Notes under the pieces: generated by a model
The model's input: the letters and a program-made list of their open reading frames with translations, nothing else
The model's database searches: none
Told to the model about the DNA's origin: nothing
Part shown: positions 26,286 to 28,676 of the stretch, one piece after another
How the letters are laid out: each line of letters starts with the position of its first letter
How positions within the stretch are numbered: the first letter of the stretch is position 1
Source: Candidatus Woesearchaeota archaeon
GTDB lineage: Archaea; Nanobdellota; Nanobdellia; Pacearchaeales; GW2011-AR1
NCBI GenBank assembly: GCA_964594495.1
Contig: CAZQLX010000001.1
Span: forward strand, 1-50,559
DNA length: 50,559 bases
Direction: 5' to 3'
Position numbers and translations under genes: made by a program

Positions 26286-26879
26286 TTTAATCTCTTTTAT
26301 TTGAATTAATATTAAACTGAATAAATAAACCTTGCTAGTCTGCTCTCGGTGTGTAATTTGAGGAAAAATTTTTCAATTTTAGTTGACTTATCTTTTCCTT
26401 TTTAACTGTATTAATTTTCTTTACTACTTCTTTTCTTAATTTGAAAGTATTTTCCCATTTTGCATAAGCTTGCTAACCTTCATAACTTTCCATCATTTCT
26501 CTATAAGATACCTCTCCTTTGTCAAAATTAACAATTTGCTTAAACATTTTTTTAACATTTCTTTTTCTTAATAATTTGTATTTATAGAAATTTCTAAAAC
26601 CAAGAAAATCTATTCCTTGAGATAAAGGAATAACTTTTGATTTATCTTTGTGCAACTCGATGCACAGATTTTTCTTAAGAAAATTATTTATTTCATATTG
26701 CCAAATAATTAATTGCTCTTTTGACTTATGTAAAATCACGAAATCATCCACATATCTAATATAATATTTTGCTTTGAGACCATGTTTAACAAAATAATCC
26801 AGCTCATTAAGATAAATATTAGCAAAAAACTGTGAAGTTAAATTACCAAGAGGCATGCCTTTGTGGCATGCGGAAGTTA

Positions 26880-26895
26880 CTCTCTCTCTCTCTCT
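26880..26895 (-). repeat. (AG)8 dinucleotide tract (CT8 on the plus strand) at the second RT frameshift
   Basis: Read directly from the sequence. The frame change between RT pieces 2 and 3 maps to this tract. Confidence 0.9.
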
Positions 26896-27328
26896 TCATT
26901 TTGAAGTTCGTATTAATGGTATTCTTTAATATTTTTTCTATTAAAAAGATCACATCTCTATCGATTATTGTTTTTTTAATTATGCTTGATAAGATATTGT
27001 GGTTAATTTCCTCAAAATAGTGCTTAATATCTGCTTTGAGACAATAACCCGTAATATAATTGCAATCTCTAAATGTATTTTTAGCAACTAGACCATTATT
27101 TGAAACTTTCCTCTTAAAATAATCGAATCTTTGTAAAGCAAATAAACCCCCCTTCCCTTTTCTGTTAGCGCATGAATCATATATAAATTTTCTATCGAAA
27201 AGAGATTCTATGATATTACAAAGAGCATGATGAACAATGCGATCTCTAAAATCAGACTTAGATATCTTACGTGTTTTTGGGTCTCTTAGAATAAAATTCT
27301 TAAGAAATTTTGGATTATAGGTTTTATA

Positions 27329-27368
27329 TTTAAGTTCATAATGTAAAGTTTAAGTTCATAATGTAAAG
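27329..27368 (-). repeat. Perfect 20-bp tandem duplication (2 x TTTAAGTTCATAATGTAAAG, plus strand) inside the RT
   Basis: Positions 27329-27348 are identical to 27349-27368. Each copy encodes 'LHYELK', in two different frames. Confidence 0.95.
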
Positions 27369-27532
27369 CCATTAAATTATAAAAGATATTATTTTCAAAT
27401 TCAATAACATAACTCTTTTTGGTCTTTCCTTTTCTTGCTTTTTTCCAAGCTAATATTAAATTCTCAAAAGAAATGACTTTTTTGTATAAGTTGTTATATG
27501 CAATCATTATAAAAGTCCTAGCCAGTGCTGAG

Positions 27533-27622
27533 CCATTCGACCATTACTGTTGGAATCGTCTAACCTGTTGTTCCAATTGGCGTTCCAGTTGCCGTTCCTG
27601 TTACGGTACAGCCTGAGAAAGC
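27533..27622 (-). repeat. DGR template repeat (TR), non-coding, about 90 nt (boundaries +/- a few nt)
   Basis: It aligns with 27944-28039. It is rich in AAC/AAT codons (9 Asn codons in the VR frame) and ends 25 nt upstream of the RT ATG. Confidence 0.85.
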
Positions 27623-27800
27623 TTATTTAGCCAATTAATCAAGATATCACTGTTGTTTCATATTTCAGTTCGGTTTCTCAAAAACCTCATAATTTACTTA
27701 ATGTTACAACTGTATTTTATAACTCTTAAGAGAGCCGTAATTAAATGACATGTGGCCCAGCCATTAAATGGCTAGGAAAAATAACAAGAGACAATCATTT

Positions 27801-28610
27801 TTAAATTAATGCTTTAAGACTTTTTTGAAATTCTGCTAATCTTGCTTTTTGTGTTTGCCTCAAGACTTCAATTCTAGTATCATCGATATCTCTAACCATT
27901 TGTTCTAAATTTTCTGCGGTGGCTTCGCCACATACAAAATCACCCACCCGACCAACACTGCCGGAATCGCCCAACCTGCCGTGCCAATCGGCGTACCAGC
28001 CACAGCCCCCGCCCCCGCCACGGCACAGCCTGAGAAAGCCCGATTTTGCTCTAAAGGGAAAATTAGCTTCCAGAAATTTTTGAGCTTTTTCTCCAGAAAG
28101 AATTTCCGGGTTATTTTTAGAAGCTATAAGATTTATACCATAAGAATTTTCTCCTTTTTTCAAATCGAACGCCTTAAAAGAAGGAAAAACAATAGGAAAC
28201 TCTCGACCTTTCATTTGTACCCTTATAGATTTAGCAAACTCTTCGTTTGGCGAATCTACACTATAAAGGACAGCTCCTATGTCCCTATAAACTCCATTAG
28301 TCAATTTTTCAAATTTATCTAAAACTTTAAATTCTTTAACACCGGGCAACCACAATTGATTATTACTTTTTCTAGCCCATTCTTGATTTATTAGAATGCC
28401 AAGAAAGATATAACTCCCTTCATTCTCGCCTGTTTGTGGATTATACTTAAAGTATCCTTTAAATCCAATAGATTCTGGAAATTCTTGCGCGATTCTTGTT
28501 TGAACTGACTCGGCAATTCCTTTATTTTCTTCTGCAGTTGTAGTTCTTGCATATCTAAACTTCTTACTTTTAGAATTATACCATAATGGAACTAATTGAG
28601 CTTCTATCAT
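27801..28610 (-). CDS. DGR target (variable) protein, 269 aa, with VR at about residues 191-223
   Basis: The intact ORF contains the VR, which encodes 'GFLRLCRGGGGGCGWYADWHGRLGDSGSVGRVG'. The TR-encoded version 'FLRLYRNRNGNWNANWNNRLDDSNSNGRM' resembles the 'R(V/L)xRGGSWNNN' VR of C-type-lectin-fold DGR targets. Confidence 0.8.
   Translation of the reverse strand: MIEAQLVPLWYNSKSKKFRYARTTTAEENKGIAESVQTRIAQEFPESIGFKGYFKYNPQTGENEGSYIFLGILINQEWARKSNNQLWLPGVKEFKVLDKFEKLTNGVYRDIGAVLYSVDSPNEEFAKSIRVQMKGREFPIVFPSFKAFDLKKGENSYGINLIASKNNPEILSGEKAQKFLEANFPFRAKSGFLRLCRGGGGGCGWYADWHGRLGDSGSVGRVGDFVCGEATAENLEQMVRDIDDTRIEVLRQTQKARLAEFQKSLKALI
27944..28039 (-). repeat. DGR variable repeat (VR), about 96 nt, inside CDS 27801..28610
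   Basis: By hand alignment it differs from the TR at 21 of 28 TR adenines, at 1 of 62 other positions, and by a 6-nt insertion. It is a local GC-rich spike in an AT-rich genome. Confidence 0.85.
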
Positions 28611-28631
28611 GATTTTTCTTTATTTATTAAG

Positions 28632-28639
28632 TATTTAAA
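28632..28639 (-). promoter_or_regulatory. Candidate TATA box (TTTAAATA) for the DGR target gene
   Basis: The octamer ends 22 nt upstream of the ATG at 28610, the same sequence and spacing as upstream of aglB. Confidence 0.4.
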
Positions 28640-28676
28640 TTTTTCTCTTATGTTATTACTATGTAAAAGTAACTTA

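Follow-up and report, generated by a model that had tools for sequence, protein, structure and literature searches.

The window, by which is meant the whole 50.5-kb stretch of DNA that was analysed, is AT-rich (32.8% G+C), and the close relatives of its contig are Nanoarchaeota, Woesearchaeota and Pacearchaeota MAGs. Its minus strand carries a compact diversity-generating retroelement (DGR) composed of a target gene, a template repeat (TR) and a reverse transcriptase (RT) gene, and the window's ORF list holds no ORF between the three. The element and the landmarks within its RT gene are as follows.

27801..28610, minus strand: DGR target gene, 269 aa, no Pfam family, carrying the variable repeat (VR)
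27940..28041, minus strand: VR, close to the 3' end of the target gene
27529..27624, minus strand: TR, delimited by the TR/VR alignment, between the target gene and the RT gene
26335..27507, minus strand: DGR RT gene, in three frame segments with a premature stop; terminal stop TAG at 26335-26337
27329..27368, minus strand: perfect 20-bp tandem duplication (CTTTACATTATGAACTTAAA, two copies), the first frameshift (+20)
26880..26895, minus (coding) strand, (CT)8 on the plus strand: (AG)8 tract in the RT3-RT4 loop, out-of-frame state
26853..26871, minus strand: inverted repeat GCATGCC-ACAAA-GGCATGC, 8 nt 3' of the tract, overlapping the G-M-P codons
26473..26475, minus strand: premature in-frame TAG, the third lesion, at the Trp of the G-W-x-A-Y-A-K-W motif

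This element joins an RT of the DGR clade to an adenine-specific TR/VR pair and a VR in the 3' part of the adjacent target ORF; with three lesions in the RT gene, an intact and expressible enzyme is missing. Among the 31 adenines of the TR, 23 are changed in the VR (20 A>G, 2 A>T and 1 A>C), mismatches at other bases are confined to the extreme 3' edge, and the VR has a 6-nt insertion (GGGGCT) relative to the TR. Since the differences are adenine-specific, the element was active in the past. With A>G accounting for 20 of the 23 changed adenines, the VR is thus very G-rich within a 33% G+C genome. An imperfect 28-bp tandem repeat (28612-28667, two copies, 83% matches) lies directly upstream of the start of the target gene.

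A repaired RT was derived by removing one copy of the 20-bp duplication and adding one AG unit to the tract. The resulting protein matches Pfam RVT_1 (E = 3e-18), has reverse-transcriptase chain 8ub7_A as its best solved relative (E = 7e-53), and carries the motifs of the DGR clade, namely KGMPLGNLTSQ (motif 4, [LIV]GxxxSQ) and YVDD (YxDD). DGRs of DPANN/Nanoarchaeota and CPR organisms were reportedly the subject of Paul et al. 2017 in Nat Microbiol, and the present element is like them in its LGNLTSQ RT, its adenine-specific TR/VR pair, the placement of the VR at the 3' end of the target and the compact target-TR-RT layout. Exact-protein look-ups with the 127-aa fragment, the neighbouring kinase and P0121 found no other assembly, and the cluster look-up returned one NCBI contig.

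Frame breaks in the window RT

The (AG)8 tract is the sole dinucleotide run of at least five units in the window, and no such run arose in 100 dinucleotide-preserving shuffles. It splits RT motifs 1-3 from motifs 4-7. The frame of motifs 1-3 reads ...NTNFKMKRERESNFRMPQRHASW*, passing through the tract to a stop at 26843. In the neighbouring frame, which encodes KGMPLGNLTSQ...YVDD, the reading frame opens where the tract begins (*RERERVTSACHKGMPLGNLTSQ...). The original prediction, which had placed the repeat at 26880-26895 between these two frames, is borne out by the sequence. So is its claim that one AG unit more or two fewer would join the halves: nine or six units are both in frame, and one added unit yields the fused ...KMKRERERVTSACHKGMPLGN.... 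The repaired protein is 60-70% identical to intact Nanoarchaeota RTs over about 95% of its length, and its alignment with homologues is gap-free at the sites of both the duplication and the tract.

It had also been proposed that the two frameshifts compensate each other exactly. The arithmetic holds, since 3 divides both start coordinates (27507 and 26856) and +20 - 2 = +18, but it carries no functional meaning, because the roughly 145 codons between the lesions, which encode motifs 1-3, stand in a frame other than that of both ends. Translation from the start at 27507 ends after 73 aa. Moreover, two independent indels that are not multiples of 3 have a sum divisible by 3 half the time. Exact compensation was rejected as a biologically meaningful feature on both counts.

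Two further lesions accompany the tract. The 20-bp duplication is the top-scoring tandem repeat of the window and an insertion relative to 21 of 21 aligned homologues. The premature TAG, which the original prediction had not contained, is a nonsense change from TGG to TAG at a position where all 21 aligned homologues have Trp, and the motif lost through it (W-x-[AG]-[YH]-A-x-W-A) is kept as far as the Bordetella phage enzyme and the solved RT structure 8ub7_A. Past this codon a further 45 codons can be read before the terminal TAG is reached, and the C-terminal ORF is 129 aa long in the window against a median of 158 aa in relatives. A reading of TAG as a sense codon was rejected; TAG terminates 4 of the 44 long ORFs of the contig and the RT itself.

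To judge from its sequence, the window RT as assembled is a pseudogene, because it combines the 20-bp duplication, the out-of-frame (AG)8 and the premature TAG, and tract slippage alone could not revive it. Other inactivating mutations had been named beforehand as the sign of a plain pseudogene, and the duplication and the nonsense codon are such mutations. In this copy the tract may simply be one step of decay. An RT encoded elsewhere in the genome could in principle serve the window TR and VR in trans.

The repeat site in DPANN/Nanoarchaeota RTs

Comparison of orthologous RTs for the tract, a check that the original prediction had named, places (AG)n or poly-G repeats at the same site in many lineages of DPANN/Nanoarchaeota, in one loop immediately 5' of KGMPLGNLTSQ. 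In 80 species-representative loci, AG/CT runs of at least 10 nt occur six times within 5.85 kb of loop windows and 0 times in the other 443 kb, and G/C runs of at least 6 are about 20-fold denser in the loop than elsewhere in these loci. At the protein level, several of the intact homologues in the alignment have ERER(V) in this variable loop. Among the closest 120 full-length proteins, the loop contains (ER)2 or longer in 12 and GGG in 16, and 86 of the 114 full-length matches carrying the motif are tract-free. GAG is the minor Glu codon of the contig (25%), so the tract is a DNA-level repeat and not a selected peptide. The loop is predicted to be disordered (AlphaFold2 pLDDT <50, residues 196-217) and is nearly missing from 8ub7_A; in-frame changes of its length should therefore be tolerable, and tract lengths from 10 to 27 nt are seen among in-frame alleles. 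Viral contigs scanned for AG and G7 patterns gave 0 matches, and the tract-bearing RTs found are therefore cellular.

In other lineages, poly-G (G9-G11) replaces (AG)n at this loop and is also out of frame (L204, L205, L206-L209, L210-L216, L025 and L029); in L215 it is interrupted, as G6TG3. The repeat is adjoined by CGAAC or CGCG in an AT-rich context (L081-L200, and GTDB loci such as L083, L087, L004, L025, L204 and L210). For example, GCGAAC stands 12 nt upstream in 'class A' loci, the window included, and other loci have a G-run with CGAAC or (GA)n with CGCG[AG]. The codon phase of CGAAC varies by lineage, being R-T in L210 and A-N in L204, which hints at a constraint at the nucleotide level. 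The C-terminal half of L209 is 100% identical to that of L206-L208 and its N-terminal half is clearly diverged; in L216, the sequence upstream of the G-run is unrelated to L210-L214. Such breaks mean that the sequences recombined, or that an assembly was misjoined, precisely at the repeat. Many such archaeal genomes have two or three DGR RT genes, on one contig (L030/L036 and L111/L136) or in the same MAG (L004/L011, L040/L068 and L017/L026/L062).

For a census blind to reading frame, metagenome contigs were scanned for (AG)5 followed 10-40 nt later by codons for G-x-P-L-G-N-x-T in any frame, which gave at least 120 stretches; the N- and C-terminal RT halves were then placed separately by tblastn and their frames compared. 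All 80 intact control loci were scored in frame, which validates the comparison. Among the matches listed, both halves could be placed in 106 tract-bearing RTs, with a frame offset of 0 in 18, 1 in 40 and 2 in 48, so that 88 (83%) are out of frame at the tract. In 86 of these 88 the N-half frame stops past the start of the tract, and in all 88 the C-half frame is open back to it. The RTs that lie whole on their contig number 73 among the matches listed, 60 of them out of frame, and a further stop or truncation is present in only 4 or 5; about 93% of the whole-length out-of-frame RTs listed thus have no other lesion, unlike the window copy with its several independent ones. The in-frame share of 17% among the matches listed is below the 33% expected under neutral cycling (p = 3e-4). 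This deficit needs either selection for the OFF state or an ascertainment effect, in which selected in-frame alleles may lose their pure tracts and drop under the 10-nt search threshold. A search of representative proteins for the ON:OFF ratio of the family returned representatives that are a mix of partial proteins.

The N-half went undetected in 14 of the 120 stretches listed (L081, L088, L111, L118, L124, L132, L157, L200 and others), the sequence starting 36-204 nt upstream of the C-half. Such missing N-halves would fit assemblies that break at a length-heterogeneous repeat; in some of these loci, for example L111, it is only the retrieved stretch that ends there and not the contig.

Unit counts in related genomes, which the original prediction had also called for, vary between otherwise identical alleles. 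Among the matches listed, six pairs from different samples share 600-nt flanks that are 99.8-100% identical, and tract length differs in three of them: L100 (18 nt, OFF) and L189 (20 nt, ON), with identical flanks; L102 (40 nt) and L192 (34 nt), also with identical flanks; and L138 (17 nt) and L198 (11 nt), with flanks 99.8% identical. Two of these three AG pairs differ by three units, which leaves the phase unchanged. In a poly-G element, L206 has G11 and L207/L208 have G10 with 450 nt downstream identical, G11 coming from one sample and G10 from three others. Independent assemblies of one element agree on tract length (L202/L203, L057/L188, L108/L183 and L148/L163), and the polymorphism is therefore not noise. 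Tract length changes faster than the flanks gain point substitutions.

Furthermore, the out-of-frame genes bear marks of constraint. Among the matches listed, 64 out-of-frame loci have 4 or more codons between the tract and KGMP, and not one of the 461 C-half-frame codons in these segments is a stop, compared with 90 stops in 871 codons in the other two frames; the post-tract loop has therefore been kept as coding sequence continuous with the C-half. Two OFF alleles whose tracts are each 19 nt long, L091 and L167, are separated by 15 synonymous changes and only 5 non-synonymous ones (pN/pS 0.078). Synonymous sites are saturated between tract-bearing RTs with conserved flanks (pS > 0.5), so the tract and a constrained gene have long coexisted. 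The open loop, the pN/pS ratio and this long coexistence argue that the out-of-frame relatives are not dead.

Protein databases give independent evidence. When the C-terminal half of the RT was searched against 5.8 billion proteins and the best 120 matches were examined, all were short (127-273 aa) and 113 were C-terminal fragments. The GMPLGN Met is the first residue of 80 of these; the other 33 begin within the loop, and RERER or GGG is present in many of them. The window's own fragment (P0121) is among the 120. Several fragments lie on long contigs, with listed longest-contig values of up to 422 kb. The DNA of four fragments was out of frame in every case, with (AG)5(CG)3, a 13-nt AG tract, G11 and G10.

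Explanations for the out-of-frame tracts

What, then, maintains a frame-breaking repeat within a conserved enzyme? Across the family, the repeat recurs at one site, is polymorphic in length, lies mostly in out-of-frame alleles that are otherwise clean, and is flanked by two halves under constraint. An in-ORF tract beyond chance length at a fixed site, repeat-number polymorphism in relatives (L100/L189, L102/L192, L138/L198 and L206/L207), and ON and OFF states of an otherwise intact and maintained gene are the marks of simple-sequence-repeat (SSR) phase variation; the last is found in relatives and not in the window copy. We therefore favour, with moderate confidence, the reading of (AG)8 as one allele of a hypermutable SSR at a fixed site of the RT3-RT4 loop, probably a phase-variable switch of the RT. 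Replication slippage would add or remove repeat units, and the RT would cycle among one in-frame (ON) and two out-of-frame (OFF) phases. In the OFF phases no cDNA would be made and the VR of the target gene would be frozen, and a return to ON would restart adenine-directed diversification; the outcome would be a population-level on/off gate on targeted hypermutation. We infer that switching is reversible within lineages and that it confers a benefit, such as freezing a useful VR variant, limiting the cost of the RT or bet-hedging. The window tract would be OFF, one unit short, in a copy locked off by the duplication and the TGG>TAG change, its VR being a record of past activity. The earlier speculation that slippage here turns diversification on and off thus gains support at the level of the family, from recurrence, length variation, the prevalence of out-of-frame alleles and constraint on both halves, and fails for the window copy with its two further lesions.

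A non-adaptive hotspot, in which a tolerant loop lets slippage-prone repeats grow until they kill the gene and OFF alleles are recently dead, seems unlikely for the family. Under it the window RT would be a later stage of decay, and for this copy, with its three lesions, hotspot and decay together fit best. The secondary lesions in 4 or 5 of the listed relatives agree with it, as does the in-frame share of less than one third, which is expected if long pure tracts build up mainly in dead genes, and so does the tract-free state of most intact relatives (the 86 of 114 above). However, recently dead genes sit poorly with the absence of any other lesion from about 93% of the listed whole-length out-of-frame RTs, with a post-tract loop free of stops over the 461 C-half codons listed, and with a pN/pS of 0.078 between OFF alleles sharing one tract length. 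The ON/OFF pair with identical flanks and the presence of the tract, with conserved flanks, in RTs saturated at synonymous sites also speak against it. Constraint on out-of-frame alleles and a loop open in the C-half frame would equally fit a bypass at expression, in which RNA-polymerase stuttering or +2/-2 ribosomal slippage yields some full-length RT and the tract tunes its level. A shift of two bases along a dinucleotide repeat lets both tRNAs pair again without mismatch, and a stable hairpin lies a few nt 3' of the tract in the window (26853-26871, RNA fold -12.3 kcal/mol, z = -6.0) and at about 8-10 other loci, like known frameshift signals. Hairpins comparable to that of the window, with differing sequences, are seen in L182, L128, L135, L002, L144 and L156. 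We nevertheless hold such a bypass to be improbable: all three phases occur and change between identical alleles, with no conserved direction of recoding, and no X XXY YYZ slippery heptamer is present. The hairpin is not family-wide (mean z -0.32 with the tract and -0.13 without), and RNAalifold found no consensus structure or covariation in 27 class-B loops. A conserved hairpin 3' of the tract was rejected as a frameshift stimulator, the tract-bearing loci being overall no different from tract-free controls. To our knowledge, transcriptional slippage is documented for long homopolymers and not for AG repeats, which also counts against bypass. The tract does resemble programmed ribosomal frameshift sites in being a repetitive 'slippery' stretch with, in the window, a hairpin 8 nt downstream; it differs from them in showing neither a fixed, conserved frame relation nor a canonical heptamer nor a conserved downstream RNA structure.

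The contig itself might be at fault, with a real tract of (AG)9 and a duplication that is merely overlap left untrimmed where contigs were joined; the RT would then be less damaged. The perfect duplication is unique in the window, 20 bp is also an overlap length of de Bruijn assemblers in common use (k at k = 20, k-1 at k = 21), and heterogeneity of repeat length can mislead a consensus. Such an artefact leaves the TAG, a base substitution, unexplained, and it is very improbable given that tract lengths are identical between independent assemblies of the same element and that high-coverage contigs are also out of frame (L135, coverage 28; L115, coverage 18). Scarcely credible, finally, is an enzyme in two pieces, with the halves made separately, the second from the Met of GMPLGN, and the tract a neutral spacer. 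This Met is ATG in 85 of 106 tract loci among the matches listed, it is where gene callers start 80 of the best 120 fragments, and split genes are common in Nanoarchaeota. But it is equally conserved in tract-free relatives with a single ORF, and AAAGGAATG abuts the ATG, leaving no ribosome-binding-site spacing. A neutral spacer also disagrees with a tract-to-Met segment that has 0 stops in 461 codons among the matches listed when stops make up about 10% of codons in the other frames, and with the coexistence of in-frame and out-of-frame alleles of one element.

Relation to known systems and implications

Phase variation at SSRs is familiar from the poly-G tracts of Campylobacter jejuni, from the tetranucleotide repeats of the Haemophilus influenzae lic genes and of Type III mod genes (phasevarions), and from the (AG)n/(CT)n tracts of Helicobacter pylori glycosyltransferases. 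The tract of the DGR RTs is like these bacterial contingency loci, reviewed in PMC11868660 and PMC3315296, in that it is pure, lies within an ORF and is far beyond chance length, that unit number is polymorphic between otherwise identical alleles, and that an otherwise intact RT occurs in ON and OFF states, with OFF common in natural samples. It is unlike them in its hosts, which are DPANN archaea, in the gated gene, a mutagenic RT in place of a surface-structure or methylase gene, and in the use of one site that holds a dinucleotide or a homopolymer repeat depending on lineage.

Another parallel is offered by mutator switches, such as the 6-bp tandem repeat in Salmonella mutL and the prophage-like excision that controls mutL in Streptococcus pyogenes. 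Like them, the RT tract is proposed to place a reversible genetic switch above a mutation-generating function, so that mutability varies within a population. Unlike the mutL switches, which act on the genome-wide rate through mismatch repair, DGR mutagenesis is confined to one VR of about 100 bp.

Surveys of DGRs are available (PMC5758913 and PMC8144416), in which repeat tracts or frameshifts of the RT and genetic on/off control of activity go unmentioned, and DGRs are scored as 'active' or 'inactive' from VR diversity with no genetic explanation (PMC8144416). DGRs and SSR phase variation are both well established on their own; a literature search, which did not take in Paul et al. 2017 Nat Microbiol, turned up no paper that ties the two together or describes frameshift-prone repeat tracts in DGR RTs. 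There is about an even chance that DPANN archaea gate their DGRs by a contingency locus internal to the RT, stochastically ON in a minority of cells and OFF in most, as a second-order switch of evolvability; this would possibly be the earliest widespread SSR phase variation described for these archaea.

In the window, the DGR should accordingly count as inactive, with a VR that is a record frozen in place. If the switch is real, the length of the RT tract would be a readable genotype of DGR state in any metagenome, and bursts of target-protein diversification would be predicted after in-frame slippage. It would also explain why many DPANN RTs are annotated as fragments, and RT calls split at the loop would not necessarily be junk. 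The biology of contingency loci would thereby extend to ultra-small episymbiotic archaea.
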